Source: a virus (lineage: Duplodnaviria; Heunggongvirae; Uroviricota; Caudoviricetes). Taken from it: DNA of 40,436 bases. Positions within the stretch are counted from its first letter, which is position 1; each line of letters opens with the position of its first letter. Location: IMG/VR virus record IMGVR_UViG_2737471852_000004; one strand, given 5' to 3'. Position numbers and translations under genes: made by a program. Below the pieces are notes generated by a model. That model had not been told where the DNA came from. It searched no databases and was given only the letters and a program-made list of their open reading frames with translations. Below, piece after piece: positions 1 through 31,468 of this stretch.

Positions 1-1248
1 ATGGCACTGAATATTCCATTCAGAAATGCGTACTATCGTTTTGCATCCAGTTACTCATTTCTCTTTTTTATTTCCTGGTCGCTGTGGTGGTCGTTATACG
101 CTATTTGGCTGAAAGGACATCTAGGGTTGACAGGGACGGAATTAGGTACACTTTATTCGGTCAACCAGTTTACCAGCATTCTATTTATGATGTTCTACGG
201 CATCGTTCAGGATAAACTCGGTCTGAAGAAACCGCTCATCTGGTGTATGAGTTTCATCCTGGTCTTGACCGGACCGTTTATGATTTACGTTTATGAACCG
301 TTACTGCAAAGCAATTTTTCTGTAGGTCTAATTCTGGGGGCGCTCTTTTTTGGCCTGGGGTATCTGGCGGGATGCGGTTTGCTTGACAGCTTCACCGAAA
401 AAATGGCGCGAAATTTTCATTTCGAATATGGAACAGCGCGCGCCTGGGGATCTTTTGGCTATGCTATTGGCGCGTTCTTTGCCGGCATATTTTTTAGTAT
501 CAGTCCCCATATCAACTTCTGGTTGGTCTCGCTATTTGGCGCTGTATTTATGATGATCAACATGTGTTTTAAAGATAAGGATCACCAGTGCGTAGCGGCG
601 GATGCGGGAGGGGTAAAAAAAGAGGATTTTATCGCAGTTTTCAAGGATCGAAACTTCTGGGTTTTCGTCATATTTATTGTGGGGACGTGGTCTTTCTATA
701 ACATTTTTGATCAACAACTTTTTCCTGTCTTTTATGCAGGTTTATTCGAATCACACGATGTAGGAACGCGCCTGTATGGTTATCTCAACTCATTCCAGGT
801 GGTACTCGAAGCGCTATGCATGGCGATTATTCCTTTCTTTGTGAATCGGGTAGGGCCAAAAAATGCATTACTTATCGGTGTTGTGATTATGGCGTTGCGT
901 ATCCTTTCCTGCGCGCTGTTCGTTAACCCCTGGATTATTTCATTAGTGAAGCTGTTACATGCCATTGAGGTTCCACTTTGTGTCATATCCGTCTTCAAAT
1001 ACAGCGTGGCAAACTTTGATAAGCGCCTGTCGTCGACGATCTTTCTGATTGGTTTTCAAATTGCCAGTTCGCTTGGGATTGTGCTGCTTTCAACGCCGAC
1101 TGGGATACTCTTTGACCACGCAGGCTACCAGACAGTTTTCTTCGCAATTTCGGGTATTGTCTGCCTGATGTTGCTATTTGGCATTTTCTTCCTGAGTAAA
1201 AAACGCGAGCAAATAGTTATGGAAACGCCTGTACCTTCAGCAATATAG
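1..1248 (+). CDS. MFS sugar:H+ symporter, LacY / oligosaccharide:H+ symporter family (host flank)
   Basis: 415-aa hydrophobic ORF; motifs FEYGTARAWGSFGYA, YNIFDQQ, GPKNALL, FKYSVANFD align with E. coli LacY as recalled. Confidence 0.85.
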   Translation: MALNIPFRNAYYRFASSYSFLFFISWSLWWSLYAIWLKGHLGLTGTELGTLYSVNQFTSILFMMFYGIVQDKLGLKKPLIWCMSFILVLTGPFMIYVYEPLLQSNFSVGLILGALFFGLGYLAGCGLLDSFTEKMARNFHFEYGTARAWGSFGYAIGAFFAGIFFSISPHINFWLVSLFGAVFMMINMCFKDKDHQCVAADAGGVKKEDFIAVFKDRNFWVFVIFIVGTWSFYNIFDQQLFPVFYAGLFESHDVGTRLYGYLNSFQVVLEALCMAIIPFFVNRVGPKNALLIGVVIMALRILSCALFVNPWIISLVKLLHAIEVPLCVISVFKYSVANFDKRLSSTIFLIGFQIASSLGIVLLSTPTGILFDHAGYQTVFFAISGIVCLMLLFGIFFLSKKREQIVMETPVPSAI

Positions 1249-1256
1249 ACGTAAAC

Positions 1257-1300
1257 TTTTCCGGTTGTTGTCGATATCTCCCTATCCCTCAACCGGAAAA
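1257..1300 (+). terminator. Hairpin immediately after MFS stop: 11-bp perfect inverted repeat (TTTTCCGGTTG / CAACCGGAAAA), 22-nt loop
   Basis: Inverted repeat read directly; loop is long and the downstream tract is A/T-rich rather than a clean U-run. Confidence 0.35.
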
Positions 1301-1772
1301 TAATAATACTAAAGTGCTTAGCCCTGCTAATAATCACCTAATCCAAACGCCTCATTCATGTTCTGGTACAGTCGCTCAAATGTACTTCAGATGCGCGGTT
1401 CGCTGATTTCCAGGACATTGTCGTCATTCAGCGACCTGTCCCGTGTATCACGGTCCTGCGAATTCATCAAGGAATGCATTGCGGAGTGAAGTATCGAGTC
1501 ACGCCATATTTCGCTATCAGGATTCTGTGTGATGGTTACATCGCCCGGCCCAGGGCTGTTTAGTCATCAGCGCTTTCTGACAGTGCTGAGATTTCAACCT
1601 GTTGCAGTAAAAATGAGTAGATATAGGGCATGCTGCCAAACCCATCTTTTACGGAGTGAAGGTAGATTTCGTTTGAAGGGTATCTGGTGTCCCCTGCAGA
1701 CATCTACTTGAAGCGGCAGGGGATTGATTGGAATGGTATTTTTTAGATGTGAGAAATATTTTACCCGCTATT

Positions 1773-1973
1773 TTACCCATTGGCGCGGCTTAAGAGCTTA
1801 TTTTTGAATTCACAATGGTCACGATATAACCATCTTGCTCGCCCGTGGATAACTTTGGCTTTAGGCAGGTCTCCGGACTTAATCCGGTCGTAGATGAAGG
1901 TTTTACCGAAGCCAGTATCGGCCATGATGAATTTCAAATCAACCAGTGAATCAGGCTGTAGTTCGTGTTGCAT
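1773..1973 (-). CDS. xis: Excisionase / AlpA-family DNA-binding protein
   Basis: 66 aa; HTH pattern ...MADTGFGKTFIYDRIKSGDLPKAKVIHGRARWLYRDHCEFK matches AlpA/Xis family; RBS GGAG 6 nt upstream of ATG at 1973; terminal gene of leftward operon. Confidence 0.7.
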   Translation of the reverse strand: MQHELQPDSLVDLKFIMADTGFGKTFIYDRIKSGDLPKAKVIHGRARWLYRDHCEFKNKLLSRANG

Positions 1974-2015
1974 GAGTGCTATCTCCGAATAGGGAATCGA
2001 ACCTGCAAATCAGGT

Positions 2016-2038
2016 AAAAAAACCGCCATCAGGCGGCT
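2016..2038 (-). terminator. Intrinsic terminator on minus strand (stem CCGCC/GGCGG, loop TGAT, U7 tract)
   Basis: Minus-strand RNA reads AAGCCGCC-TGAT-GGCGG-TTTTTTT; sits 40 nt after the 3' end of the 2080-2379 gene. Confidence 0.6.
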
Positions 2039-2079
2039 TGGTGTTCTTTCAGTTCTTCAATTCGAATGTTGGTTACGTC

Positions 2080-2379
2080 TTATTCGATACGCACTCCTGG
2101 TATTTCGCCTTTTGATATTGCTAAGTCATAAATTTGCGCAGCACTATACCCATCTCGCATCCATGAATCTAAGGCGCGAACAGCCTCGCTACGCTTTTTA
2201 TCTTCTCTCTCATTTTTGATATCAACGAGGACATCAACGCAATTAAGGCAAATGTGGATTTTGTCCTTACATTCGATCATGGCTGCTTTACTATGATTTC
2301 CGCCACACAGTGAGCATAAATCTTCAGGGTCTGGCTGGTATTTCTGTAACGTTAGAGGGTTGAATGTTGAACAGGCCAT
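2080..2379 (-). CDS. Hypothetical Cys-rich (zinc-ribbon-like) protein
   Basis: ORF with CSLCGG...CLNC Cys pairs; start placed at third Met (2379), which has GGAG 6 nt upstream. Confidence 0.5.
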   Translation of the reverse strand: MACSTFNPLTLQKYQPDPEDLCSLCGGNHSKAAMIECKDKIHICLNCVDVLVDIKNEREDKKRSEAVRALDSWMRDGYSAAQIYDLAISKGEIPGVRIE

Positions 2380-2390
2380 AATCATCTCCA

Positions 2391-2415
2391 TAAAACAAAA
2401 CTCGCCGTAGCGAGT
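2391..2415 (-). terminator. Candidate intrinsic terminator on minus strand (stem ACTCGC/GCGAGT, loop TACG, U-rich tail)
   Basis: Minus-strand RNA reads ACTCGC-TACG-GCGAGT-TTTGTTTT between the ASCH-like gene and the Cys-rich gene. Confidence 0.45.
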
Positions 2416-2450
2416 TCAGATAAAAGAAATCCCCGCGAGTGCGAGGATTG

Positions 2451-2735
2451 TTATTCATTGCTGATATTCACCTTTATCGCGAACACCTTTACCGGTTTAT
2501 CACCGAAGTGCGGATGTGTGATTGTCTTGATTTCATATCCACCATACGGAACATCAATTCTGCGACTGGAATCGTCGCGCTTCGGATATCCCTTTGTGAT
2601 AATCAGGCGGTCATACTCCCGGAACATAATTCGCTTATTCCAGTAGTCATTACACAGGCGATACTCTTCCGTTTTCTCTCCGCGAATCATGGCATCGAAG
2701 TATTCACCTTTGACAGCAAGCTGTAGGTTAGCCAC
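2451..2735 (-). CDS. ASCH-like domain protein (hypothetical)
   Basis: N-terminus LAVKGEYFDAMIRGEKTEEYR resembles the start of ASCH/PUA-like domains; GTG start at 2735 has GGAGG 6 nt upstream and overlaps the upstream stop. Confidence 0.45.
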   Translation of the reverse strand: MANLQLAVKGEYFDAMIRGEKTEEYRLCNDYWNKRIMFREYDRLIITKGYPKRDDSSRRIDVPYGGYEIKTITHPHFGDKPVKVFAIKVNISNE

Positions 2736-3336
2736 GGTTAACCTCCAGTTGTGGTGCTGCCTCAATAGCAGCCCTGTAACCAGCAGCATGACCGCGAAAG
2801 TTAGCAATCTCTGATAGCCACGCTTTAATCATGGCCTGAGTTGGTTCCTTCGGCACCATAACCCAACCATCCTGAGTTACCGGAGAGTTGCCATCCAGCG
2901 CGTTCAACTTGTAAGCCTGGCTTACAGGTTCGGCACTATGAAGCATGGCAGCGCGGCAGGCGTTCCAGCCATCAACATAATCAAACGTATTGCTATCGTC
3001 TGGCTCGATTTCATCCGGCACTACCGGCTCTGGTTGGATAGTGACGTTGGCAAAGGCAGCACGCAAACCGGCCTTAATTTCCTCTACTTCATCAGCGCCT
3101 AGCGATGAATCTGACAATGCGTGATGGAATGCGTAAGCCATGTCGTCGTTTACTGCAACCGGTTCTGCTTCCAGCGATGCCAGTGCAATCCGTACCAGTT
3201 CCAGTTCCCGTTCAACCATCTCAAGAACAACTTTGCAGTCCTCACCTTCTTTGCTGGCACGTCCTTTCAAGTCTTCCAGATAACTAACGCTTTCGCGTGC
3301 ATGGGATATTAACTGTTCTTTGGTAATAGTGGTCAT
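2728..3336 (-). CDS. Hypothetical phage early protein (acidic, 202 aa)
   Basis: Long ORF, translationally coupled to neighbours; no recognisable motif. Confidence 0.55.
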   Translation of the reverse strand: MTTITKEQLISHARESVSYLEDLKGRASKEGEDCKVVLEMVERELELVRIALASLEAEPVAVNDDMAYAFHHALSDSSLGADEVEEIKAGLRAAFANVTIQPEPVVPDEIEPDDSNTFDYVDGWNACRAAMLHSAEPVSQAYKLNALDGNSPVTQDGWVMVPKEPTQAMIKAWLSEIANFRGHAAGYRAAIEAAPQLEVNRG

Positions 3337-3338
3337 AG

Positions 3339-3530
3339 CTATTTCACTTTAATCTCAACATTTCGCAGCTTTAGCTCTACTGGCAGGTCTGACTTTCCTG
3401 TTAATGCTAATGCGAGATTTTCAGGAGTAATGAGAGCAGTTATTGTTTTCCCCATTGCCAGACGAATAATCATTCGTATCTCGCGATCGTCACATGCTCC
3501 CGGTCGAACAATTGATATTTGTCCATTCAT
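3339..3530 (-). CDS. Hypothetical small protein (63 aa)
   Basis: ATG at 3530 has AGGAG 7 nt upstream, 1 nt after the Ead stop; the longer track ORF (to 3572) would overlap Ead by 41 nt. Confidence 0.4.
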   Translation of the reverse strand: MNGQISIVRPGACDDREIRMIIRLAMGKTITALITPENLALALTGKSDLPVELKLRNVEIKVK

Positions 3531-3531
3531 C

Positions 3532-4134
3532 TCACTCTCCTTTGATGCGAATGCCAGCGGCGCGGATTGCATCGATGACTTCAGAAACTTTGTATGCCAT
3601 TACCGTTTGGTAATCATCGTGAAAATCTGTTCGATGAAGCATGCTGCTACGTTCCGGGAGCAGTATTTCCCGATCCTCCAGTTCTGCTATGCGCTTCTCT
3701 GCGGATTCCAGCTTCTCGCGCATATCGTCAACGTACTCGACCAGAGAACCGCCAGCAGGAATTTCGCACTCCTCGACCAGTTGGAAGTAGATATCAGCTG
3801 CGGCCCGTGTGTTGCTATGCCTAGCGTCGCCCATCTCACCTTCACGAAGAGCATCGCGTTCGGCGGTAAGATTGGCTATTTTGCTGTCTTTGCCTTCAAG
3901 CTCAACGCGCAGCTTCCCTACCGTTAGCGCAATTTCCTCGTTCTCCTGGTCGCGGGATTTGATGTATTGCTGGTTTCTTTCCCGTTCATCCAGTAGTGCA
4001 AGCACAATGTGTGGCGTTATTAAGGACTCAAATTCGGCAACAGCTTGCTCACCTCGCTTGTAATTATTAATCCCACCTAAATCTTTCGCGTTCTGCGCCG
4101 CCTCACGCAGTGCCTGATAGTCAATCTTGCTCAT
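3532..4134 (-). CDS. Ead/Ea22-like family protein
   Basis: N-terminus MSKIDYQALREAAQNA... and coiled-coil middle are typical of Ead/Ea22-like proteins of P22-like and lambdoid prophages (recalled). Confidence 0.7.
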   Translation of the reverse strand: MSKIDYQALREAAQNAKDLGGINNYKRGEQAVAEFESLITPHIVLALLDERERNQQYIKSRDQENEEIALTVGKLRVELEGKDSKIANLTAERDALREGEMGDARHSNTRAAADIYFQLVEECEIPAGGSLVEYVDDMREKLESAEKRIAELEDREILLPERSSMLHRTDFHDDYQTVMAYKVSEVIDAIRAAGIRIKGE

Positions 4135-4135
4135 G

Positions 4136-4435
4136 TCACACCACCCTGAATCCGTTGCATTTACGTAAAAAATCGCAGATATAGCCCTTCATTTTTTCGT
4201 GCCAATCTCGATCATTCCCATTGCACCAACCATCAGGTGGAGTCCAGTTTTCTATCAGAGCAGCCATTTTCTTTGCTTTCGCCGGAGTAGCTGTTGCGGT
4301 ATCGCAGTAATGACGAGTGTCAACCAACGCATCCATACCATCGATATCAAGTACGCAAAACCATGTGTGATTCGGAATTCCTACAGGTGGTATTTGTTGC
4401 CCACGTCGACGTTTATCAATAAGATATACACTCAC
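4136..4435 (-). CDS. Hypothetical protein (99 aa, Cys/Trp-rich)
   Basis: GTG start at 4435 has AAGGAGG 6 nt upstream and overlaps the upstream stop (GTGA); stop is 1 nt before the Ead ATG. Confidence 0.5.
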
Positions 4436-4599
4436 TGCTTGCCTCCTTTGCGCCACATCGCATTCAGATATTTGTTTTGATTTACTGACGGAAAAGAATT
4501 TCTCTTAAGCAATTCCTCTCTCGATGGCATTGGCTTTACGCGTTGGCGAATAATCATTTCTGCTGGAAGAATGCCGGGATTGTATGCAAGTCCTCTCAT
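4432..4599 (-). CDS. Hypothetical small protein (55 aa)
   Basis: ATG at 4599 has GAGG 8 nt upstream; alternative ATG at 4617 overlaps the upstream stop. Confidence 0.35.
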
Positions 4600-4609
4600 G
4601 GTAAATTCC

Positions 4610-4903
4610 TCAGTCATTACTGATAGCGCCATAGCGTGAGCGGTAATTACGCAGGCGCGGGTCAATTTCAGGGAAGTGGGTATATGTGGCTTTGCGGAAT
4701 GGTCGGATTGATGTCTGGTAAATTCGCTCGCGTTCTTTTTTCTCTGCAAGCCAGATACAATGGCGAAATTCCTTTTCCTCTTTCGTTTCCTGCGGTAGCG
4801 ACATTATCAGGTCGTAGTTTTTTCTGAATTTATCCAGCACCTCCAATACGGAATTGCCGGAACAGCGGCGCGCGTCGTCCGCACCATACAGAGGCGCTGG
4901 CAT
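4610..4903 (-). CDS. Hypothetical protein (97 aa)
   Basis: ATG at 4903 has AAGGA 7 nt upstream. Confidence 0.5.
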
Positions 4904-4926
4904 AATGGAATCCTTATTTTGCTAAT

Positions 4927-5310
4927 TTAGAAGGGAATTGAATCGTCGTATTCAGGATGATTTTGATGATTGCTACTTTGTTGCTGTTGGCTGTTTCCTG
5001 AAGTTGCAAATCCAATCTTTGCATTCAGTAATTCAAGAGTGATTGATTGACCATTTTGCCCCTGATAAGCATCAACCCTGATGTTTTCTCCGGTAATTTC
5101 AACAATGCCTCCTTCAACCAGAACGCTACGGTAGTAATCCGCTTGCGCTCCCGGCTTGGCAAATACAACGGCGCTGTAGTTTGTCCATTCTTTCTTTTTT
5201 GTCTGGCGATCGTAATACTGAACGCCAGCACGGATGTTGAATCCGATATTTTCCCCGGCCTGAAACTCTCTTGCGGGCTTGTTTAGTCTTACAGTAATCG
5301 AATGTGCCAT
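4927..5310 (-). CDS. Compact SSB-like protein with acidic C-terminal tip (...PEYDDSIPF)
   Basis: C-terminus matches the bacterial SSB tail D-D-D-I-P-F; OB-fold-like core; ATG overlaps the Erf stop (TAATG). Confidence 0.55.
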   Translation of the reverse strand: MAHSITVRLNKPAREFQAGENIGFNIRAGVQYYDRQTKKKEWTNYSAVVFAKPGAQADYYRSVLVEGGIVEITGENIRVDAYQGQNGQSITLELLNAKIGFATSGNSQQQQSSNHQNHPEYDDSIPF

Positions 5311-5915
5311 TAAGCAGCAGCTCCTTCTAATTCGTCTCGTCTGATGTTGTAAACGTCCTGCGCTTTGTGCTGCTCAGGTGTGCCTTCGAGCATCTTCCAC
5401 GCTTTGGCGAACGCCTGTTTAAGCTCTTCTACGGTGTTTTTCTGCATTGCTGCGTCAGTGAATGCTTTTAGAACCTGTTCAGGTGTAGGTGATGGTTTTG
5501 ATTGCTTTGCTGCTGCGTTCTGCTGATGTTTATGCTCGTCTGTATCTGCATCTTTCGCATCATCTATGCCGAACAAACCATTGAGGCAATACTTGCGCGC
5601 ATAAGAGCTTGTAGCTCCAGTAACTTGTGCAGAATCCATTCCTTTCTTGCTTTCTTCCTCTCGTGCAAGAGCAGTTGCCGTATGACTGTTTTCGCCATCG
5701 GTAATAGTTGCCGTGGCTTTCACGTAATACCGATCACCAATCAACACAACTTCATCGCTGATTGATAAAAACAGGCCATTCAGTAACGGCTTAACGCCTT
5801 CAAGAATGTCTTCGCAGCTTCTGTATTTATATTTACCGAATGAGTTGTACTGATTCTTTGGCGCGTTCAGATTCTCCTGAATAGCTGCCAGTCTTGCGTA
5901 AAATTCTTTGCTCAT
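5310..5915 (-). CDS. erf: Erf-family single-strand annealing recombinase
   Basis: MSKEFYARLAAIQENLNAPKNQYNSFGKYKYRSCEDILEGVKPLL... is near-identical to phage P22 Erf as recalled; start at Met 5915, not the upstream track start. Confidence 0.9.
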   Translation of the reverse strand: MSKEFYARLAAIQENLNAPKNQYNSFGKYKYRSCEDILEGVKPLLNGLFLSISDEVVLIGDRYYVKATATITDGENSHTATALAREEESKKGMDSAQVTGATSSYARKYCLNGLFGIDDAKDADTDEHKHQQNAAAKQSKPSPTPEQVLKAFTDAAMQKNTVEELKQAFAKAWKMLEGTPEQHKAQDVYNIRRDELEGAAA

Positions 5916-5925
5916 ATGATTGTTC

Positions 5926-6096
5926 TCAGAATGGACACGGCCCAAGGAAATAACGCTGATTTAATACTTCGACTCTGGACAAGTTAAGGCATACCCGCAT
6001 TCCTTCGCGGTCACCATTATGGCGATACCAGAGAGCTTTCTGCGTGTACATGCGTCTCTGTAACTTGCTCTCCTTCACTGTGGTTGCAAGTGACAT
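5926..6096 (-). CDS. Small ORF (56 aa) in the position of P22 arf
   Basis: ATG at 6096 has AAGGAG 6 nt upstream; assignment by position only; a competing 52-aa ORF (6017-6175) overlaps in another frame. Confidence 0.3.
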   Translation of the reverse strand: MSLATTVKESKLQRRMYTQKALWYRHNGDREGMRVCLNLSRVEVLNQRYFLGPCPF

Positions 6097-6171
6097 GAAT
6101 ATCTCCTTCGTTACCGATTAATTCTTTCATCTGACGAATGAATTCTTCGTCTGACCAGTTATCTGTAAAAC

Positions 6172-6324
6172 TCATTTCCTGCGATACCACGGAAGGTTGA
6201 TAGCTGATTTCATCGCTTTATTTGCTTCAAGCCACATTTTTGAATCACCAATAAATCTGGCTATTACTGCTTTGTTTTGTGCAGCACGAAGCATCTGGTG
6301 ATTGATGGCTATTTCATTGCGCAT
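6172..6324 (-). CDS. Small ORF (50 aa), possible Kil-like host-division inhibitor
   Basis: ATG at 6324 has GAGGT 6 nt upstream; between cIII-like and erf as kil is in P22; motif ARFIGDSKMW is only tentatively Kil-like. Confidence 0.35.
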   Translation of the reverse strand: MRNEIAINHQMLRAAQNKAVIARFIGDSKMWLEANKAMKSAINLPWYRRK

Positions 6325-6440
6325 AATAAGACCTCAACTCTTTTCCATCCGTCACGTAATTTACGGGTGATTCGTTCAAGTAAAGATTCATTTAGTTGGA
6401 AGGCACCCATGCGAGCGCCTCCCGCGATTGCGTAAATCAT
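6309..6440 (-). CDS. cIII: CIII-like protein (FtsH inhibitor / lysogeny promoter)
   Basis: 43 aa MIYAIAGGARMGAFQLNESLLERITRKLRDGWKR...; the ESLLERITRKLRDGWKR core matches lambda CIII as recalled; AAGGA RBS. Confidence 0.65.
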   Translation of the reverse strand: MIYAIAGGARMGAFQLNESLLERITRKLRDGWKRVEVLLCAMK

Positions 6441-6464
6441 GGGTGGTTCCTTATGTTGGTTTTA

Positions 6465-7433
6465 TTAGTAGATTATTTTTGTTGCGAATACTTCGCCTTT
6501 TACGATGGCTGTTATGATATTTTTAGCAACATCTTCTGATGCGCCAACCTTGATAAGGTCAGCAAGTATTTTGTTATTTACTTCTTTTCGGTGAGCTTTA
6601 TCCTTTGCTCTACGCTCTTCTTCGTCCTTGATTCTTTTTTCTTCTGCTATTCTGGCTTGCTCTTTTGCTTCAGCCTCGCGCCGGATTCGTTCAGCCTCCT
6701 CCTGTGCTTTTCGGCGTTCTGCTTCAATTGCCGCCTGCTTTTCTCTTTCAGCTTGTTCTGCTGCCTCTTTTGCTTCGCGCTGTGCTCGTTGCTCGGCTTC
6801 AATGCGTTCACGCTCTGCACGTTCCGCTGCGGCCTTAGCTTCTGCTTCTCGCCTTGCTGCTGCTTCAATTTCGGCTTTTGCCTTTGCTTCGGCTTCAGCT
6901 CTGGCTTTCTCTTCAGCTTCTCTTTGTAAGCGTTCTTCATGCTCTCGCTTTTCCTTCTCCGCTTTGAGTCTTGCCTCTTCTCTTTGGCGGTCAAATTCGC
7001 GATCCATCAAAATCGCTATTTCATGGTCAGACTCAATTTGCTTTGCGAGAGCTTCAGCTGCTGCCTTAGCTTCTTCTTCGGCTTTAATCCGCGCCTGTTC
7101 TTCCTCATAATCAGTAAGAGGCTGGCGTGCCTTGGCTTTCAGCTCATCAAGGCGATCACGCACTGTCTTGCGGTTGGCATCAATTAGCTTTGGAATTTCC
7201 TTCAGTTCAGCAACAAGGTCTTTGCCAAGACCATCGAGATATGTTTTCGTCTGCGCAACTTTATACGCCAGAGAAGCGATCTCCTTTCTGCCCTTTGCCG
7301 TTGTGATATCAGGCACAAAGGACATAACTTCACGTTCAACCTTTTGGAGAATTTCTTCAATCTGGTCGGCAGACTGAAATACAGTCATTGCATTTGCTTT
7401 TTCAATAACAACTAAATCTGTTACTTCACTCAT
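6465..7433 (-). CDS. Hypothetical coiled-coil protein with about 180-aa E/A/K/R-rich low-complexity repeat
   Basis: Start at Met 7433 with GGAGG RBS (track ORF extends to 7487); N-terminal globular part, long AEAKA/EAERR repeat, short C-terminal domain. Confidence 0.6.
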   Translation of the reverse strand: MSEVTDLVVIEKANAMTVFQSADQIEEILQKVEREVMSFVPDITTAKGRKEIASLAYKVAQTKTYLDGLGKDLVAELKEIPKLIDANRKTVRDRLDELKAKARQPLTDYEEEQARIKAEEEAKAAAEALAKQIESDHEIAILMDREFDRQREEARLKAEKEKREHEERLQREAEEKARAEAEAKAKAEIEAAARREAEAKAAAERAERERIEAEQRAQREAKEAAEQAEREKQAAIEAERRKAQEEAERIRREAEAKEQARIAEEKRIKDEEERRAKDKAHRKEVNNKILADLIKVGASEDVAKNIITAIVKGEVFATKIIY

Positions 7434-7608
7434 ATATCCTCCATCAAAAAAATCGCCCTCACATCGGAGGGCAAAGAAGATTTCCAATAATCAGAACAAG
7501 TCGGCTCCTGTTTAGTTACGAGCGACATTGCTCCGTGTATTCACTCGTTGGAATGAATACACAGTGCAGTGTTTATTCTGTTGTTTATGCTAAAAATAAA
7601 GGCCACCA

Positions 7609-7860
7609 TCAGGCAGCCTTGTTGTAAATGTTGCAGGTATCAAGTAAGTAATTAGATGGAGCGCCATAAATTATGAATTCATCGTTTGTCGGGTCCATCT
7701 CCATCTCTTGGCCTATTGCCATTCTTGCGTCAGTGTCATCAGCGGCGAAGCATAAAACAGCCCACGCACCCATTGTTTTAAAAAGAACTGCAATTGGCTG
7801 TGGTTTTACTGAATTTGCGTTAGCGCGAAAATCACAAATCGCACTTTCATGAAACTCCAT
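7609..7860 (-). CDS. Hypothetical protein (83 aa)
   Basis: ATG at 7860 has GAGGTG 4 nt upstream. Confidence 0.5.
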   Translation of the reverse strand: MEFHESAICDFRANANSVKPQPIAVLFKTMGAWAVLCFAADDTDARMAIGQEMEMDPTNDEFIIYGAPSNYLLDTCNIYNKAA

Positions 7861-7914
7861 ATATCACCTCAAATAAGTGGTTTGCTGCGAAAGTAAATAC
7901 GCTTAAGTTACCTG

Positions 7915-8052
7915 TTATTTATCCCACCAAGTTCCGTATTTATCTATCCAGTTACACCAATCATCGACACTCCATTTTGTTGTGTCGCATTTTGGCAATT
8001 GGCATGAATATCTACCTTCTTTGTAAAGTCGGCGTTTGACTTTCTTGAGCAT
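7915..8052 (-). CDS. Hypothetical small Cys/Trp-rich protein (45 aa)
   Basis: Below the ORF-track cutoff; ATG at 8052 has GAGGT 4 nt upstream; translation MLKKVKRRLYKEGRYSCQLPKCDTTKWSVDDWCNWIDKYGTWWDK. Confidence 0.35.
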   Translation of the reverse strand: MLKKVKRRLYKEGRYSCQLPKCDTTKWSVDDWCNWIDKYGTWWDK

Positions 8053-8170
8053 GACTACCTCAATCGTAATAAGCTGGAATTGATTTTCCGCGTTGCTTCT
8101 GGCGGCCTGAGCAGGTCACACCCATTTCACTGCGTGGCTTGCTGTAATAAATTCGGTTAGTTCAGACAAT

Positions 8171-8190
8171 AAAAAACCCACCGAAGTGGG
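8171..8190 (-). terminator. Intrinsic terminator on minus strand (stem CCCAC/GTGGG, loop TTCG, U7 tract)
   Basis: Minus-strand RNA reads CCCAC-TTCG-GTGGG-TTTTTTT directly after the stop of the 8191-8529 gene. Confidence 0.6.
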
Positions 8191-8529
8191 CTATGACCAT
8201 TTTTTATTTGGATTTCGTTGGTGAGCGTGATTAACAACTCTGTGCATTACATCCTCATATTTTTCATCTTCAATTTTTTCGACATCGCGAGGAAATGGTG
8301 TTGCTAATGCTTTGTCAACTTTATCCATTGGGTCTTCATTAATCTTATATTCAGGACCGTCATCTATAGCATTAAATCCAGGTGTTACACCGTTTTTTAA
8401 TGCATATGCTATCCTCTTTTCCCATCTCGCTATTCTCCTCCTGTCTCGAGATGTAAGACCTCTATCAGATACTTTTCTGTTTTGTCCGCGGTCAGGATTA
8501 ACATAAATAGTCTTTTTCACCATAAGCAT
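8191..8529 (-). CDS. Hypothetical basic protein (about 112 aa)
   Basis: ORF directly downstream of the N-like gene; start uncertain (ATG 8529 or 8523, or TTG 8535). Confidence 0.5.
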   Translation of the reverse strand: MLMVKKTIYVNPDRGQNRKVSDRGLTSRDRRRIARWEKRIAYALKNGVTPGFNAIDDGPEYKINEDPMDKVDKALATPFPRDVEKIEDEKYEDVMHRVVNHAHQRNPNKKWS

Positions 8530-8531
8530 AC

Positions 8532-8837
8532 TCAATAAGCACCGTACGGTAGTTTACCGTACAATTTTATTTTTTGGACTGCATGTATTTTGTTTCCTAA
8601 TGGGTTTGAATCTTTGTAATAAATACTTCTATTTTTTCGAACGACTTCTTCTTTCTTCTTGCAGCAAAGGATTCCTAGTGATGCTGCTTTGTCTGCTTTG
8701 ACGCAACCAGAGAGCTTTAGCGCAATTTTTCGCGCCAGTGCTTCATTACTGCGTCGCTCGGCAATAAGTTCTGCTCTGCGAGCTTTGTAGCGGCTTTTTG
8801 CCGTACCTTTGGATTCTTTCCAGACAATGGTTACCAT
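8532..8837 (-). CDS. N: N-like transcription antiterminator (arginine-rich motif), P22 gene 24 type
   Basis: First gene downstream of PL; N-terminus MVTIVWKESKGTAKSRYKARRAELIAERR is an arginine-rich motif; AAGGAG RBS at Met 8837. Confidence 0.55.
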   Translation of the reverse strand: MVTIVWKESKGTAKSRYKARRAELIAERRSNEALARKIALKLSGCVKADKAASLGILCCKKKEEVVRKNRSIYYKDSNPLGNKIHAVQKIKLYGKLPYGAY

Positions 8838-8947
8838 GATGGTCTCCTTTAAGTGGCTTTGGCGCATGACGCGTCGAGGTGCTTATCTTCTCGATCGCTG
8901 TCTTGCAGCTGCAATTCGCGCCATCCCCAAAACCACTCAAGTTCTGG

Positions 8948-8987
8948 TCTCAACGGTTAGGTTGAGAGTCCGTCGATGTTAAAGAGC
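8948..8987 (-). promoter_or_regulatory. Candidate nutL: boxA-like GCTCTTTAACA followed by a 7-bp-stem hairpin (boxB-like)
   Basis: Minus-strand RNA has GGCTCTTTAACA then TCTCAAC-CTAACC-GTTGAGA between PL and the N-like start. Confidence 0.4.
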
Positions 8988-9029
8988 CTGCCAATCTGTT
9001 CCGTTTGGCTTCCAGCGTCCTGCTGATGA

Positions 9030-9062
9030 CTTAAATTTAAGACTTCTTAATTTATTGGTCAA
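9030..9062 (-). promoter_or_regulatory. PL promoter (-35 TTGACC, 16-bp spacer, -10 TTAAAT) with overlapping repressor operator
   Basis: Hexamers read on minus strand; operator ATTTAAGACTTCTTAATT (9035-9052) has TTAAG half-sites of the P22-c2 type. Confidence 0.5.
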
Positions 9063-9130
9063 GTGCATTTTTGAAGAAAACTTAATTTTATGGGCGTGAA
9101 TTTAGTTTGTCTTTGATTTTTAACGGGAAA

Positions 9131-9153
9131 TAAAAAAGGGGCGAAAGCCCCTT
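9131..9153 (-). terminator. Intrinsic terminator at the 3' end of c2 (stem AAGGGGC/GCCCCTT, loop TTTC, U-tract)
   Basis: Minus-strand RNA reads AAGGGGC-TTTC-GCCCCTT-TTTTATTT, overlapping the c2 stop codon. Confidence 0.5.
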
Positions 9154-9802
9154 AAGGAAGGTTTGCTAGCTTGGCATCAACGACAACGCCAATGATTTTA
9201 CAGTTCCCATTGATTTCAATCATTGGGTATTGTGGATTGAGTGGTTTCAGGAATTTTCTACCGGCATCAATAACTAACTTTTTGAATGTCGCCTCGTTTT
9301 CTCCTTCAAGTTTGGCGACTACCAGCTTTCCATTACGTGGTTCGACTTCTGGGTCGACGAGAATAATCATCCCCTCAGGAATACTCAGTCCTGCCGGGGC
9401 AGTCATTGAGTCGCCTTTAACGTCGAGCCAAAAAGAGTCTTCAGAACAATCTACCGTTGTGTCGTACCAGTTATCTATTGCACGCCTATGATATGGCTCT
9501 ACAGCTTCCATCCAACATCCTGCGCTTACCCAACTAATTAGAGGATACGAACCTCTTGGATCATGCCTGCTGTGATAGGCAATGTTTGAAAGACTATCCT
9601 CTCCTTTCAACAGGTAATCAGGGGAGCACTGCAAAGCCTTGGCTAAGGCCAATAGGTTTTCGCCATTGGGCTCAGTTTCAGATCGCTCCCATTGGGAAAT
9701 AGCAACATTAGACACGCCAACCATCTTGCCAAGGGCAGCCTGCCTAATCTTGAGTTCTTTTCTGCGAGCGCGAATACGCTCACCCATCAGTTGTGTATTC
9801 AT
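9152..9802 (-). CDS. c2: Prophage repressor, P22 C2 type (HTH plus LexA-like S24 autopeptidase domain)
   Basis: 216 aa, MNTQLMGERIRARRKELKIRQAALGKMVGVSNVAISQWERSE...; near-identical to P22 c2 repressor as recalled. Confidence 0.95.
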   Translation of the reverse strand: MNTQLMGERIRARRKELKIRQAALGKMVGVSNVAISQWERSETEPNGENLLALAKALQCSPDYLLKGEDSLSNIAYHSRHDPRGSYPLISWVSAGCWMEAVEPYHRRAIDNWYDTTVDCSEDSFWLDVKGDSMTAPAGLSIPEGMIILVDPEVEPRNGKLVVAKLEGENEATFKKLVIDAGRKFLKPLNPQYPMIEINGNCKIIGVVVDAKLANLP

Positions 9803-26191: not shown

Positions 26192-27133
26192 ATGATTACT
26201 TTTGATCAGGCAACCGTTGACAGCTCTGGTGCCTTTCTCATCGGGGAGCTGGAACGACTAGACCAGACGCTGAACCTGCCACTGGTGGGGTACACCTGGA
26301 CCCGCGATATCCAACTGCGTGAAGATGTCTCCATCGCAGATGACATTTCCAGCTGGACGAATACCAGCTTCGCCGCTGCGGGTACTGGCGCAAATCCGAA
26401 TGGCAAAAACTGGGTAGGCAAAGACTCAACCGCTATTGCTGGCGTGAACGTGGATATCGGCAAATCCGGTAACCCGCTGAACCTGTGGGGGATGGAACTT
26501 GGCTGGACGGTCATAGAATTGCAGGCTGCTCAGCAGGTCGGACGCCCGATCGATACGCAGAAGTATGACGGGATGCAACTGAAATGGCAGATGGATAACG
26601 ATGAACAGGTATATGTTGGCGATTCAGCATTAAACCTGAAAGGCCTTGTTACCCTGGACGGCGTGCCTGTCAACAACGCTGCCAAAACGTGGGCAACCTC
26701 AACACCGGACGAAATCCGCGCAAGCATTAACCAGGTGCTGTCTGATGCGTGGGCCGCTTCCGGTTACTCTGTGGTTCCGAGTGATTTGCTGATCCCACCT
26801 GAGCAGTTTGCTCTGTTGTCCAGCATCATCGTTTCATCTGCGGGTAACCAGTCCCTGTTGACGTACCTTCAGACCAACACCATCAGCTATCACCAGAACG
26901 GTGTTCCGCTGAATATCCGCGCGGTTAAATGGCTGAAAGGCCGTGGTGTGGGGAAAAAGGATCGCATGGTTGCGTACACCAACGATAAAAAATACGTCCG
27001 CTACCCGCTGGTTCCGCTTCAGAGCGTGCCGGTGCAGTATCGCGGTCTGTATCAGATCGTCACTTACTACGGCAAGCTGGGTGCGGTTGAGCCAGTGTAC
27101 AAAGAAACCATTTCGTACGTTGATGGCATTTAA
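26192..27133 (+). CDS. Putative major capsid protein
   Basis: 313 aa; position after scaffold; followed by a strong hairpin. Confidence 0.6.
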   Translation: MITFDQATVDSSGAFLIGELERLDQTLNLPLVGYTWTRDIQLREDVSIADDISSWTNTSFAAAGTGANPNGKNWVGKDSTAIAGVNVDIGKSGNPLNLWGMELGWTVIELQAAQQVGRPIDTQKYDGMQLKWQMDNDEQVYVGDSALNLKGLVTLDGVPVNNAAKTWATSTPDEIRASINQVLSDAWAASGYSVVPSDLLIPPEQFALLSSIIVSSAGNQSLLTYLQTNTISYHQNGVPLNIRAVKWLKGRGVGKKDRMVAYTNDKKYVRYPLVPLQSVPVQYRGLYQIVTYYGKLGAVEPVYKETISYVDGI

Positions 27134-27140
27134 CAGCCAC

Positions 27141-27162
27141 ATGGCCCCCTGGCGGGGGCCAT
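27141..27162 (+). promoter_or_regulatory. Stable GC hairpin after the capsid gene (9-bp perfect stem ATGGCCCCC/GGGGGCCAT, loop TGGC), no U-tract
   Basis: Read directly; possible mRNA-stabilising or attenuating structure. Confidence 0.4.
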
Positions 27163-27175
27163 TAAGGATGACCCG

Positions 27176-27397
27176 ATGGCAAAAAATAATGCAGTAATAC
27201 ACGTACATACCCCGTTTGTGCTCACGCTTCCCGACGGTTCACGGCGCGAGTTTGTTAAAGGCCGTCATGCTGTGGAGGAAGAAGTTGCCACGCACTGGTT
27301 CACTCGTGCGCACGCGGAAGTATCCGTTGGCAAAGCCACAGACGCGCGTAACGAGGTAAAAAATGCCAAAGAATCAAAGTCTGCCAGCGGTAAGTGA
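27176..27397 (+). CDS. Hypothetical virion-module protein (73 aa)
   Basis: ORF with AAGGA RBS; overlaps the next gene by 35 nt. Confidence 0.4.
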
Positions 27398-27770
27398 TTT
27401 TCGCCGCGACTTCCCGCAGTTTGCTGACCCTGCCAAATATCCCGAAGCGCAAATCCAGTTTCGTCTGAATCTGGCCGATGAACTGCTGAGCGAAAACGTC
27501 ACCGGAAAAAAGTTGTTTCCGTACTTTGCCGAGTTGTTCGTGGCTCACTACATGACGCTATGGGCGGCAGATAGTCGGGCAATGCTGGTTGGTGGCCCGG
27601 GCGGTTCAACCAATGGTGTTCAATCCTCCAAGTCCGTTGACAAGGTAAGCGTCAGCTATGACACCAGCGCGACGCTAAACCCTGATGCAGGTTTCTGGAA
27701 TAACACCCGATATGGCGCTGAATTTTATCAGTTGATCACGATGTTTGGTGCAGGCGGTCGCCAGCTATGA
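27363..27770 (+). CDS. Putative head-tail connector / head completion protein
   Basis: 135 aa; GAGGT RBS; between capsid and sheath genes. Confidence 0.45.
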
Positions 27771-28321
27771 GCTTCAAAAGCGGTGTAACAACGAGGGTGG
27801 ATAACGCTCAGGCCATTCTGGATGCGCTCAGGTCGCTAACCAAAAAGGATGTGCTGGTCGGCATCCCTTCGGAAGACAGCGAGCGTGAAGATGTTCCGTT
27901 TGGTAATGCCGGGATCGGCTATGTCAACGAATACGGCTCACCAGCGCAAAACATCCCCCCACGCCCGCACCTGACCCCCGGCGTTAAATCGGTAGAGGGA
28001 CAGACAGTGCCGCAGCTCAAAACAGCGGCGCAGGCTGCGCTTGATGGTAATGCGTCGGGTGCGGAAAGAGCGCTCAACCGTGCCGGAACGCTGGCCGCTA
28101 ATGGCGTCAGGCGTTACATGACTATTACCGGCTTTACGCCGCTTGCTGACAGCACTGTTGAAGCCCGCGCACGTCGAGGGCGCAAAGGGGCGAAAGCTGA
28201 GCTTGCCCGACGCGCTGCTGGCGAGTCACCCGGAACCGATCTGGTGAAACCGCTAATTGACACCGGACAGTACCGCAGAGCTATTACCCATGTAGTGAGG
28301 GATAAAGATGCCGACTCTTGA
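27767..28321 (+). CDS. Putative head-tail joining protein
   Basis: 184 aa; translationally coupled; assignment by position. Confidence 0.4.
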
Positions 28322-28697
28322 TGTAACAGACGTGCTTTTTGACCCCGATTTTTGCGACTTCAACCTGTGGGTAACGCGTCGCGTGCAAACGGTGGACGAT
28401 GACGGGATCGGCAGTGACAGCGAAGTTAAAACGCAGTTTGCCGGAGTTGTTACCGTTGACCGCTCCCTGGAGAACCGCCGTATACAGTCCGGGCAAGTTA
28501 TCAGTGGCGCGATTCTTATCGTGACAACTGAGCGACTGACGCAGGGACAGACTGGCCGTGATGCAGATATCGTGACGTATCAGGGCCGTGATTATCGTGT
28601 GACTTTCGTCGACCCGTATACAGCTTATGGGTCCGGATTCGTTCAGGCGCATTGTGAGTTGCTGCCGTTTGATGGGGGAATTCCGGTTGAGCAATAA
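28308..28697 (+). CDS. Putative head-tail joining / tail completion protein
   Basis: 129 aa; GAGGG RBS; assignment by position. Confidence 0.4.
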   Translation: MPTLDVTDVLFDPDFCDFNLWVTRRVQTVDDDGIGSDSEVKTQFAGVVTVDRSLENRRIQSGQVISGAILIVTTERLTQGQTGRDADIVTYQGRDYRVTFVDPYTAYGSGFVQAHCELLPFDGGIPVEQ

Positions 28698-29235
28698 CAC
28701 CAGCACAGAGCGCGGATGGTTAATACCAACCAGTGGCGATCCGGATTATGACGAAGCGCTCGACAGGCTGTTAAGCCAGTGGATGCGTAACGTTTCCGGT
28801 CTGTCTGCCGGGATGGTTCGTCCGCGCTGGCAGAAAGAGCAGCCGCCACTGCTACCGGCTGAAACGAACTGGTGTGCGTTTGGGGTTATCGGATGGTCAG
28901 GTGATGACAGTCCGGCATTCACCAGACAGACCGATGATGGCTCTCAGCTCTGGCGGCATGAAACGATTGAGTGTATGGCTTCGTTTTATGGTCCGGCTGG
29001 GATGGTGTATGCGTCCCGGTTTCGTGACGGTATATCTGTACCGCAGAACAACGCAGCACTGAATGCGCTGGGGCTGTCTCTTGGCGATTACACAGGTCTG
29101 ACTCCCTTCCCTGAACTTATTAATCAGCAATGGGTCCGCCGCTACGATATGACGGTGCGTCTGCGCCGGAAGGTTGTGCGCGAGTACGGTATTAAATCGC
29201 TGGTGGAAGCACCAGCCATCTTTTTCGGAGATTAA
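28672..29235 (+). CDS. Putative tail completion protein
   Basis: About 187 aa; start uncertain; immediately upstream of the sheath gene. Confidence 0.4.
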   Translation: MGEFRLSNNTSTERGWLIPTSGDPDYDEALDRLLSQWMRNVSGLSAGMVRPRWQKEQPPLLPAETNWCAFGVIGWSGDDSPAFTRQTDDGSQLWRHETIECMASFYGPAGMVYASRFRDGISVPQNNAALNALGLSLGDYTGLTPFPELINQQWVRRYDMTVRLRRKVVREYGIKSLVEAPAIFFGD

Positions 29236-29238
29236 GCT

Positions 29239-30384
29239 ATGGCACAGGGCTTGCCTGTATCAAACGTTGTTAATGTTGATGTGATCATGTCGCCGCGTGC
29301 AGCATCAGGGCGAAATTTTGGTGCATTACTCATTCTCGGCCCGTCCACAATCATTCCGGTAAGTGAGCGCATTCGCCGTTATTCTGCCGCGGAAGATATT
29401 GGAAAAGATTTTGGCGTGGAATCACCAGAATATAAAGCTGCGCAGGTGTTTTTCTCACAATCACCGAAACCTCAGGAGGTTTTTGTTGGTCGTTGGGTGA
29501 AAACGAAGGGAGACAGCGAACAGGCCACGCCTGAGACGCTGGAGCAGGCTGTGAATGCCATGCTTGATTATACTTCATGGTATGGGCTGGGGATTGCAGA
29601 CGATGCAGATATTCCGGATGCAGACTGGCTGAAAGTGGCTGCGGAGATCGAATCCTCTTCTGTAAGCCGTATTCTGGCGATTACGACAAGCGATGAGAAA
29701 TGCCTGCAGACTGCATCCAGCGATGATTTGGCATCAAAACTGAAAACCGCCGGATATTCACGCAGTTTTATTCAATATTCATCGGGTAATAAATACGCTG
29801 CGTTATCTGCATTTGGCCGGGCATTCACGGTTAATTTCAATGGCAGTAATACCGCGATTACGCTCAAGTTTAAGCAGGAGCCGGGTGTCGGGTATGAAAC
29901 ACTGACAGTCAGCCAGGCATCGGCACTTGATGCAAAAAACTGCAATGTGTTCGTGTACTACCAGAATGATACAGCTATCCTCCAGCAGGGAGTGATGGCT
30001 AACGGCGATTTCTTTGATGAACGCCACGGCCTGGACTGGTTACAGAATTATGTGCAGACCAACCTCTATAACCTGCTTTATACCAGCACCACGAAAGTAC
30101 CCCAGACTGAAGCCGGTATTACCCGACTGTTATCAAGTGTTGAAAAATCACTGGATCAGGCCGTTCAGAATGGACTGATTGCTCCGGGCGTATGGAACGG
30201 GGGCGACCTTGGTCAGTTGTCATCAGGTGACACACTGCCCAAAGGTTATTACGTATACGCTCAGCCGCTGGATGAACAGGCTCAATCAGAACGTGAAGCC
30301 CGTAAGGCTCCGGTGATTCAGGCTGCAATAAAACTTGCAGGCGCGGTTCATTACGCTGACGTACAGATTAACGTTGTTCGCTAA
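29239..30384 (+). CDS. Putative contractile tail sheath protein
   Basis: 381 aa followed by a 146-aa tube-sized gene, chaperone and tape measure (canonical myovirus order). Confidence 0.6.
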
Positions 30385-30394
30385 GGGGAAGTGA

Positions 30395-30835
30395 ATGTCT
30401 ACCTATTCTTTTATGGATGTCACTGCGACGCTGACCGGGCCGACCGGTTCGATTGACCTCGGGTACGGTTCTGCAAGTTCTGAAGAGGGGATTGTGGTTG
30501 CGATGGGCGGTCCTAAAAACACCATGACCATCGGTGCTGATGGTGAAGTGATGCACAGCCTCCATGCAGATAAAAGCGGGACGATTACCGTTAACCTTCT
30601 GAAGACATCACAGACAAATAAAAAATTGTCGCTGGCGTATAACGCACAGAGCCAGTCTTCTGCCACATGGGGGAATAACGTTATTGTGATCCGAAACAAG
30701 GTCAGCGGCGACATCATCACGGCACGTAGTGTTGCGTTCCAGAAACAACCGGATAATGCCAACGCTAAAACCGGTAATACGATGCCGTGGGTGTTTGACT
30801 GCGGCAAGATTGACCAGGTTCTCGGGGAGTTTTAA
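30395..30835 (+). CDS. Putative tail tube protein
   Basis: 146 aa, between sheath and chaperone genes. Confidence 0.55.
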   Translation: MSTYSFMDVTATLTGPTGSIDLGYGSASSEEGIVVAMGGPKNTMTIGADGEVMHSLHADKSGTITVNLLKTSQTNKKLSLAYNAQSQSSATWGNNVIVIRNKVSGDIITARSVAFQKQPDNANAKTGNTMPWVFDCGKIDQVLGEF

Positions 30836-30838
30836 TAC

Positions 30839-31291: not shown

Positions 31292-31468
31292 CGTTTAACA
31301 GCCTGCCGGACGGGCTGTCCTACCTTCTCAATCCGGTTGACGCCGGGTTAATTCCCTATACAGCACTTAAAGATGGCTCTGTCGATTTGTATGACATTGC
31401 TCTCTTGAATGACCATCTGGCGGTAAAAGCGGATAACCAGCGGCGCATTGAGAAATGGAGAGAGGATA

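Follow-up and report, generated by a model that had tools for sequence, protein, structure and literature searches.

An exchangeable accessory gene block with abc2 at the distal end of the early-left operon of an Escherichia coli prophage

Introduction

Accessory genes at the distal end of the early-left (PL) operon have been described in two groups of lambdoid phages, which are the closest known counterparts of the prophage block analysed here. In P22-like phages, the 'ea' region (P22 abc2-orf56-eaE...eaA, HK620 hkaF-hkaJ and Sf6 genes 19-25) occupies the slot between xis and erf/ssb/abc2, and in lambda and the Stx phages the exo-xis region (ea8.5, ea22, orf61, orf63 and orf60a) occupies the slot between xis and the recombination genes. 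Exo-xis genes are reported to be expressed early and to be non-essential (PMC8614690, PMC3824215), and the phenotypes ascribed to them concern lysogenisation and induction (PMC3824215, PMC7093339, PMC10789677). In this work, we analysed positions 2080-4903 of the virus record IMGVR_UViG_2737471852_000004, a stretch of 40,436 nucleotides (nt) hereafter called the window, where eight closely packed minus-strand genes have a TorI-type xis on one side and the genes of an Erf/SSB recombination module on the other. The block belongs to an E. coli prophage with an early region of the HK620/Sf6/P22 type.

Two protein families represented in the block have been studied experimentally. By binding RecC, P22 Abc2 reprograms RecBCD, presumably to commandeer it for the Erf pathway of the phage; its residue Pro68 docks into the host protein PpiB (PMC9836394). 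Ea22 proteins consist of a short N-terminal segment and a coiled coil followed by interchangeable, mostly acidic C-terminal domains, which are swapped among phages in a domain mosaicism already described, and the two versions measured in solution, those of lambda and P27, are tetramers (PMC10834534). The Ea22 proteins of lambda and Stx phages are reported to favour lysogeny (PMC10834534, PMC7093339). As to the surroundings of such genes, Silas et al. argued that accessory regions beside known counter-defence genes are enriched in counter-defence functions.

Results

The block is very probably the part of the early-left operon that lies farthest from the promoter and holds accessory genes in exchangeable cassettes; it matches the 'ea' region of P22, HK620 and Sf6 and the exo-xis region of lambda. 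It shares with the 'ea' region the slot, the strand and the close packing, as well as 96-97% nucleotide identity over the shared pieces. The families in common are abc2, DUF2737 (orf56/hkaI), DUF7739 (hkaH/gp22), Ead/Ea22 (hkaG/gp21) and a Cys-rich protein (Sf6 gp19), and these gene families fill the equivalent position in Sf6, HF4s and ES18 as well as in E. coli prophages located at this chromosomal site. However, no phage record or complete E. coli genome covers at least 80% of the block, so its gene combination was not matched at that coverage. Other differences are that a chimera of 202 amino acids (aa) encoded in the block is rare, that abc1 and genes of the Lar-like, EaA and DUF551 kinds are missing from the window, and that the late genes of this prophage are of myovirus type, unlike those of P22-like phages. 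With the lambda/Stx exo-xis region, the block shares the PL slot, an Ea22 homologue (62% identity over 86 aa) and a small protein beside xis for which zinc binding is predicted here. In contrast, it has no homologues of orf60a, orf61, orf63 or ea8.5, the C-terminal domain of its Ea22-like protein is unrelated, and the recombination module is Erf/SSB/Abc2 instead of the Exo/Bet/Gam of lambda.

Comparison with 85 related loci indicated how the block is assembled. The abc2 and DUF2737 genes are present in 83 of them, and coverage drops sharply after these two genes. Alignment ends cluster at the gene boundaries (4430-4450, 4130, 3520, 3310, 2730-2740, 2450, 2380 and 2080), with a further cluster of breakpoints inside the Ea22 gene at about 3880-4000. 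Moreover, the spacers between genes occur in more loci than the genes on either side of them. Cassette exchange shapes the array: homologous recombination at conserved gene-boundary and intergenic sequences replaces entire genes or domains, and every prophage thus has a combination of its own. A preliminary description of this DNA had proposed a variable accessory region in the distal part of the PL operon, which is correct.

The gene starts were refined from the list of open reading frames (ORFs), the offsets of PHROG alignments and the ribosome-binding sites read in the sequence (Table 1). All eight genes have a strong family match, with Pfam or PHROG expect values (E) from 1e-19 to 1e-68. 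In homologous DNA fetched for comparison, the variable sites are concentrated on codon position 3 of the minus-strand frame in seven of the eight genes (positions 1/2/3: 16/20/47 in abc2, 12/7/35 in the ASCH-like gene, 5/2/18 in the 63-aa gene and 8/2/18 in the Cys-rich gene); the comparison covers seven genes, the 202-aa gene having no nucleotide homologue among the fetched loci. This pattern points to purifying selection acting in the minus-strand frame. Starts, family matches and codon-position variation thus confirm the eight genes between xis and the recombination genes that had been proposed earlier. Successive gaps from abc2 to the Cys-rich gene are 10, -4, 1, 1, 2, -8 and 71 nt, and translational coupling, also proposed for most of the genes, holds at six of the seven junctions, the last being the exception. 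Guanine-plus-cytosine (GC) content ranges from 0.42 to 0.51 in the eight genes, against 0.49 for the window.

Table 1. Features of the block and of the neighbouring prophage region, with positions in the window.
Feature	Position	Strand	Remarks
abc2 (anti-RecBCD protein 2)	4610-4903	minus	97 aa; promoter-proximal gene of the block
DUF2737 small basic protein	4432-4599	minus	55 aa, isoelectric point (pI) 11; P22 orf56 / HK620 hkaI type
DUF7739 protein	4136-4435	minus	99 aa, GTG start; Sf6 gp22 / HK620 hkaH type
Ead/Ea22-like protein	3532-4134	minus	200 aa, pI 4.84; lambda-Ea22-type N-terminus and coiled coil, unrelated C-terminal domain
63-aa protein	3339-3530	minus	phrog_1222, E 1.3e-40
202-aa acidic modular protein	2728-3336	minus	phrog_12449, E 3.8e-53; phrog_60
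ASCH-like (PUA-like beta-barrel) protein, likely	2451-2735	minus	94 aa, GTG start; phrog_625, E 2.6e-50
Two tandem terminator-like hairpins	2398-2449	minus	scan sites 2449-2428 and 2417-2398; in the 71-nt spacer before the Cys-rich gene
Cys-rich protein	2080-2379	minus	99 aa; predicted C4 zinc finger, variable helical linker, conserved C-terminal motif; Sf6 gp19 / 933W L0063 type
Terminator-like hairpin and U-run	2020-2039	minus	8-bp stem, then TTTTTTT; between the Cys-rich gene and xis
xis, TorI-type	1773-1973		downstream of the block
Host oligosaccharide permease gene, major facilitator superfamily (MFS)	1-1248		start of the window
SSB-like gene	4927-5310	minus	
Erf	5310-5945	minus	
nun	8191-8535	minus	108/109 identical to HK022 Nun
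N-like antiterminator	8532-8867	minus	phrog_271, E 1e-29
CI-type repressor	9152-9802		

The promoter-proximal gene can be identified as that of the known protein Abc2. Its product matched Pfam PF11043 (E 2.6e-62, 207.5 bits against a cutoff of 25, covering 1-97/97) and phrog_656, 'abc2 anti-RecBCD' (E 2.4e-53). It aligned with P22 Abc2 (PDB 8b1t_A; structures 8b1t/8b1u) at E 8.6e-57 over 97/97 residues with 10 mismatches, about 90% identity, and Pro68 is kept within a retained IRPF motif. The gene lies beside erf and ssb as in P22; the differences are the ten substitutions of the window allele and the absence of abc1 between erf and abc2, where the SSB-like gene stands. By its likeness to the solved P22 protein, the window allele is predicted to bind RecC and to change how RecBCD responds to Chi. 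The preliminary description was therefore mistaken in stating that none of the products is identifiable as a known inhibitor, since 4610-4903 encodes the one characterised counter-defence/recombination factor of the block.

The next gene encodes a DUF2737 protein (PF10930, E 4.7e-31, 106.9 bits against a cutoff of 25; also phrog_1117), and its stop overlaps the GTG start of the DUF7739 gene. Among 80 IMG/VR loci retrieved with Abc2, 54 have at least 3 kb of downstream sequence, and DUF2737 follows abc2 in 54/54 of these, the other block genes being found in only 1 to 28. Because all abc2 copies in these loci are at least 96% identical, a single block of common homology may account for part of the linkage. 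Sf6 and ES18 have a further gene between abc2 and DUF2737. The core of DUF2737 (residues 23-51, 29 residues) is also conserved in virulent Jerseyvirus/Kagunavirus siphoviruses, in about 500 records besides Salmonella phage SETP3. In SETP3, the one such phage inspected, it lies amid ninZ/ninH-like genes (at 2941-3096), and no abc2 was seen in the 4.3-kb stretch viewed around it. DUF2737 is thus specific neither to temperate phages nor to abc2, and since its core occurs in virulent phages and the SETP3 stretch has no abc2, it is not obligatorily a partner of Abc2; the notion of a strict partnership is weakened accordingly. That DUF2737, present with abc2 in all 54 loci, is an unrecognised Abc2 partner is improbable, and is the weaker of the two novel readings of the block.

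The DUF7739 protein matched PF24881 (E 7.7e-19, 68.5 bits against a cutoff of 27) and phrog_1239 (E 4.9e-54). As the long ORF is aligned only from its residue 8 onwards, GTG 4435, which is preceded by AAGGAGG, was taken as the start. No PDB relative was found for it by sequence, and the gene occurs in seven of the 54 abc2 loci. For the 63-aa protein, the phrog_1222 alignment from residue 15 of a 77-aa ORF likewise sets the start at ATG 3530 behind AAAGGAG, and there was no Pfam match at E up to 10.

The Ead/Ea22-like label given earlier proved right: the protein matched PF13935 (E 4.5e-19, 69.8 bits against a cutoff of 27), and over residues 1-86 it shares 62% identity with lambda Ea22 (E 4e-28). 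Past residue 86 no similarity to lambda Ea22 was detected, including the C-terminal domain solved by nuclear magnetic resonance, and a sequence search of the PDB with the C-terminal half gave no match. The part of the gene encoding the N-terminus is present in 28 of the 54 abc2 loci and the part encoding the C-terminus in 10. From its family, by N-terminal homology only, the protein is predicted to form tetramers and to have pro-lysogenic activity.

The 202-aa protein is acidic, as described before (pI 4.54; 35 D+E against 17 K+R), and has no Pfam match. Its 5387 homologues, mostly named 'DUF551 domain-containing', match about 50-79% of the query. The first 160 aa or so are common to prophage proteins that usually end in DUF551, whereas this protein ends in a different module of 40 residues. 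Among the 120 best matches listed, the full-length ones at 98% identity or more belong to two clusters (P0155 and P0156), and the portion of the gene at about 2950-3300 is almost absent from the 85 comparison loci at a nucleotide identity of at least 85%.

The neighbouring 94-aa protein had been called ASCH-like, a label that is plausible in view of names and fold but falls below the Pfam threshold. The phrog_625 alignment starts at residue 25 of the ORF, which sets the start at GTG 2735 behind GGAGG. There are 670 homologue clusters bearing the NCBI name 'ASCH domain-containing protein', and proteins 98% identical are named ASCH too. However, the match to Pfam ASCH (PF04266) was below the gathering threshold (E 0.027, 15.6 bits against 21.2), and a sequence search of the PDB with a profile built from 24 homologues yielded no ASCH chain. 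The AlphaFold2 (AF2) model reached a mean predicted local distance difference test score (pLDDT) of 73.8, three of the five models being below 45. When it was compared with the PDB by Foldseek, the top six hits were ASCH or ASC-1-like (including 3iuw, 1xne, 2z0t and 5guq, with E 0.07-0.4), all of them weak (E 0.07-0.6, template modelling score 0.43-0.59). The ASCH identity is thus likely, not established. Sequence searches of the PDB with the ASCH-like, Ea22-like, 202-aa and DUF7739 proteins gave nothing meaningful, and a literature search on ASCH proteins in anti-defence found nothing relevant.

The Cys-rich protein, which closes the block beside xis, matched phrog_3680 (E 1.4e-68). Its residues C22, C25, C44 and C47 are near-invariant, being at least 90% conserved in 24 sequences. 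They are spaced as in the N-terminal zinc-binding domain of ClpX (C-x2-C-x18-C-x2-C), with whose four cysteines, numbered C14, C17, C36 and C39 in E. coli ClpX, they align. ClpX was the sole zinc-finger family matched in Pfam, NCBIfam and the PDB, always below threshold (PF06689, E 0.004, 17.5 bits against a cutoff of 27). An hhalign comparison of the family with E. coli ClpX 1-60 gave a probability of 89.9% (E 1.7e-6, 38 columns); the aligned part of this ClpX segment agrees with the PDB chains. A family profile search of 1.84 billion representative proteins returned only 24 relatives, three of which carry two or three true ClpX-type fingers (Pfam E 1e-24 to 1e-39), and these multi-finger proteins were retrieved at library-wide E of 1.5e-5 to 3e-4. 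In addition, two full-length family members of about 100 aa pass the Pfam cutoff for PF06689 (P0281, 28.4 bits; P0284, 31.7 bits). Because family members and the profile search link the Cys-rich family to true ClpX fingers, the finger appears by transitive homology to be of ClpX type, for which a treble-clef fold, zinc binding and dimerisation would be predicted. The zinc-ribbon-like protein of the preliminary description was therefore a good guess as to zinc, which can now be sharpened to a ClpX-type C4 finger.

The likeness to the ClpX N-terminal domain (PF06689, PDB 1ovx/2ds5) extends to the residues flanking the cysteines (CS.CG ... IC..CVD.L). In contrast to ClpX, the phage protein is free-standing, has only 99 aa and lacks an AAA+ module; its finger is preceded by a conserved YQPDPEDL motif and followed by a helical tail with a conserved C-terminal motif, I(Y/V)D..I..G.IP..RI. 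The AF2 model (pLDDT 67) led to uninformative fold searches. A homologue with 48% identity occurs in Enterobacter prophages whose early region is of another kind (YqaJ, Dam, DUF1382); there too, it is located upstream of xis and int, with one small gene in between. The Cys-rich protein thus keeps its position beside xis in different lambdoid backgrounds. We also considered it as a counterpart of lambda Ea8.5, a zinc finger/homeodomain hybrid beside xis, and rejected this: BLASTP gave E 0.28, and no chain of an Ea8.5 homologue was among the PDB matches. A literature search on free-standing phage-encoded ClpX-type zinc fingers found nothing relevant.

Two relatives of the Cys-rich protein are hybrids. 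In P0276, a DUF551-family N-terminal module is fused to the second half of the Cys-rich protein, with the junction at a shared AAM(I/L) and the first CxxC lost, and in P0034 a different N-terminus is joined to the C-terminal motif. These proteins join N-terminal modules of the 202-aa type to the Cys-rich C-terminal half and therefore show in-frame exchange between these genes.

The Cys-rich gene is flanked by two boundary segments. The tandem hairpins of the 71-nt spacer before it, each followed by a U-run, fold at -26.3 kcal/mol (z = -5.8; 0 of 200 shuffles as stable). This spacer is far commoner than either flanking gene, being present in 48 of the 85 loci against nine for the Cys-rich gene, and may serve both as a recombination boundary and as a point of N-dependent read-through. 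The second segment, at about 2000-2080, is present in 56 of the loci, with a fold z of only -1.8. Both segments resemble in their behaviour the 'boundary sequences' annotated in Sf6. An Rfam scan of 1200-9300 gave a single match, below threshold, to the prophage small RNA isrK (2016-2090, minus strand; 19.9 bits against a gathering cutoff of 50, E 0.74), which is most likely just the terminator hairpin. A promoter scan found no sigma-70-like promoter upstream of any of the eight genes, the 71-nt spacer included.

Two ORFs on the plus strand of the block also match PHROGs: 2439-2726 (PHROG 20945, E 1e-59) and 3809-4063 (PHROG 13760, E 4e-21). We rejected both as genes. In the first, the variable sites fall on its codon position 1, as in a shadow ORF; the second lies inside the Pfam-supported Ea22 gene, where codon-position counts do not separate the frames. 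The two PHROGs were probably built from wrong-strand miscalls over the ASCH-like and Ea22 genes.

With regard to the prophage setting, E. coli genomes carry the same MFS permease gene followed by prophages of this type, in which a TorI-type excisionase is the first phage gene. There is no integrase and no tRNA between the permease gene and xis (1249-1772), and no tRNA in the window. The absence of an integrase there is explained by the attachment site, which in Sf6 and HK620 lies between int and xis; by this analogy, int should lie at the other end of the prophage, beyond the window. In a related E. coli genome, the spacer matching 1249-1772 is annotated with a 50-aa DUF4942 fragment. Farther upstream on the minus strand, after Erf, come two small HK97-gp42-like genes, kil, cIII and a gene for a 340-aa protein; promoter-like sites were found at about 9034-9113. 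The block therefore lies between the recombination genes and xis, where an N-antiterminated PL operon has its distal end.

Some other features of this prophage were noted. The 340-aa protein of the PL operon (6465-7487, minus strand; phrog_1376, Sf6 gp33 type) has a long, highly repetitive helical region rich in Glu, Ala, Lys and Arg. The nun gene lies directly downstream of the ORF for the N-like antiterminator, with a 4-nt overlap; the HK022 Nun reference chain is PDB 6alg. HK022 itself has Nun in place of N, and the presence of both in one prophage may be worth a look. The myovirus-type late genes (26192-40230, plus strand) include a DUF3383 sheath-like gene, Baseplate_J, DUF2612 and a baseplate-hub-like gene. 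The early-left region, of HK620/Sf6/P22 type, is like that of podoviruses, and the prophage is therefore a mosaic at the level of modules.

Discussion

The layout of the region suggests how the block would work. After infection or induction, RNA polymerase modified by N would start from PL and read through the recombination genes and the internal terminator-like hairpins, and the eight packed and mostly coupled genes would be transcribed; their products would be dispensable for growth and would alter the host. By homology to the solved and tested proteins, Abc2 would bind RecC, so that RecBCD, otherwise a nuclease destroying the ends of phage DNA, would work together with the Erf/SSB module. 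The Ea22-like protein would belong, on its N-terminal homology, to the family of coiled-coil proteins that bias lambda and Stx phages to lysogeny, with a different C-terminal effector domain here. The remaining six may be small modulators that bind host proteins or nucleic acids: DUF2737 travels with abc2, the ASCH-like protein probably forms a beta-barrel that binds nucleic acids or acts as a hydrolase, and the Cys-rich protein would be a free-standing ClpX-type zinc-binding domain.

Some points weigh against this view of the block. That PL drives transcription of the block and that the polymerase reads through the hairpins at 2398-2449 is inferred from the synteny with lambda and P22. The Cys-rich gene, bracketed by terminator-like hairpins, could have its own regulation, yet its 71-nt spacer contains no promoter-like site. 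For six of the eight genes, no relative has been characterised by experiment, and 'host modulator' is for them the assignment of a class and not a mechanism. Finally, the ASCH and ClpX-finger assignments depend, as far as the proteins encoded here are concerned, on scores below threshold.

An alternative, which we regard as open to considerable doubt, is that the block is a module for developmental tuning like the lambda/Stx exo-xis region. Its genes would then act mainly on the lysis-lysogeny decision, on prophage induction and on the physiology of the host, such as replication, proteolysis and the cell cycle, and less on host immunity. The position is that of the exo-xis region, a true Ea22 homologue is present, and the published exo-xis phenotypes concern lysogenisation and induction. 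Moreover, a ClpX-type zinc-binding domain beside xis in different lambdoid backgrounds would fit a control of protein stability during the decision. However, the Ea22-like protein has only its N-terminal half in common with lambda Ea22, Abc2 is a recombination/RecBCD factor and not a developmental switch, and none of orf60a, orf61, orf63 and ea8.5 has a homologue here, the comparison with Ea8.5 being non-significant and DUF1382 and DUF1317 giving no match.

The preliminary description had pointed out that genes in such positions often act against restriction or other host defences. Abc2 is such a factor, but nothing points to this role for the other seven genes. It is unlikely that most of these seven are inhibitors of host immunity (restriction-modification, abortive infection), clustered with abc2 and exchanged under an arms race. 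They do lie directly downstream of a counter-defence gene, where the argument of Silas et al. would predict such functions, they are gained and lost often, at cassette-like breakpoints, Sf6 has in this slot a gene whose annotation is a Lar-like restriction alleviation protein, and two of the products are strongly acidic (pI 4.5 and 4.8), as DNA mimics often are. However, none of the seven has a PHROGs annotation of this kind or a Pfam, NCBIfam or PDB relative among such inhibitors (Lar/Ral, Ocr, Ard, Gam and others), although no dedicated anti-defence profile search was made and remote members are possible. There was no match to a Lar-type family at the thresholds used, and none of six peptide fragments was found in the supplementary files of the accessory-gene screen of Silas et al. 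The studied homologue, Ea22, has a lysogeny phenotype and not an anti-defence one, and DUF2737 is invariant beside abc2, not fast-evolving. NCBIfam gave nothing for the eight proteins beyond sub-threshold ClpX matches. PADLOC, which models defence and not anti-defence, gave for all eight only two weak coiled-coil matches, both to the Ea22-like protein (E 0.005 and 0.02) and judged to be noise.

It is most improbable that some genes, especially the Cys-rich one, are morons expressed from the repressed prophage to the benefit of the host (superinfection exclusion, stress tolerance): two hairpins set the Cys-rich gene off from the operon and another follows it, a moron-like architecture, and the prophage has a lysogen-type exclusion gene elsewhere, nun, but the eight genes lack sigma-70-like promoters in the scan, all are in PL orientation and tightly packed, their GC content is average, and no PADLOC match to a defence family was meaningful, the best being to a coiled-coil region.

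As an exchangeable accessory segment, then, the block belongs to a kind of region that is already known, the usual shuffled part of the lambdoid early-left operon. It holds one characterised gene directed at RecBCD, one gene from a family whose members affect lysogeny, and the genes for six small proteins of catalogued families. As a whole it matters little, its gene of known function, abc2, being already well characterised. Its practical value is a short and well-delimited list of candidates for functional screens. One is the DUF2737 gene, always with abc2 in the loci compared and yet found in virulent phages of Jersey and Kagunavirus type. Another is the free-standing protein with the predicted ClpX-type zinc finger beside xis, with about two dozen representatives among 1.84 billion clustered proteins, which is the only mildly new lead of the block.

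Several signals dock at the N-domain of ClpX, among them SspB-type tails and signals of the lambda-O and MuA types. It is conceivable, if quite improbable, that the Cys-rich protein is a free-standing mimic of this domain, which would pair with the N-domains of ClpX or soak up adaptors or substrate tags and so reprogram ClpXP at the lysis-lysogeny or excision decision. If such mimicry were true, the conserved place of the gene beside xis in unrelated lambdoid backgrounds would be meaningful, and if the protein interferes with ClpXP, it would represent a novel means by which temperate phages control proteolysis in the host.

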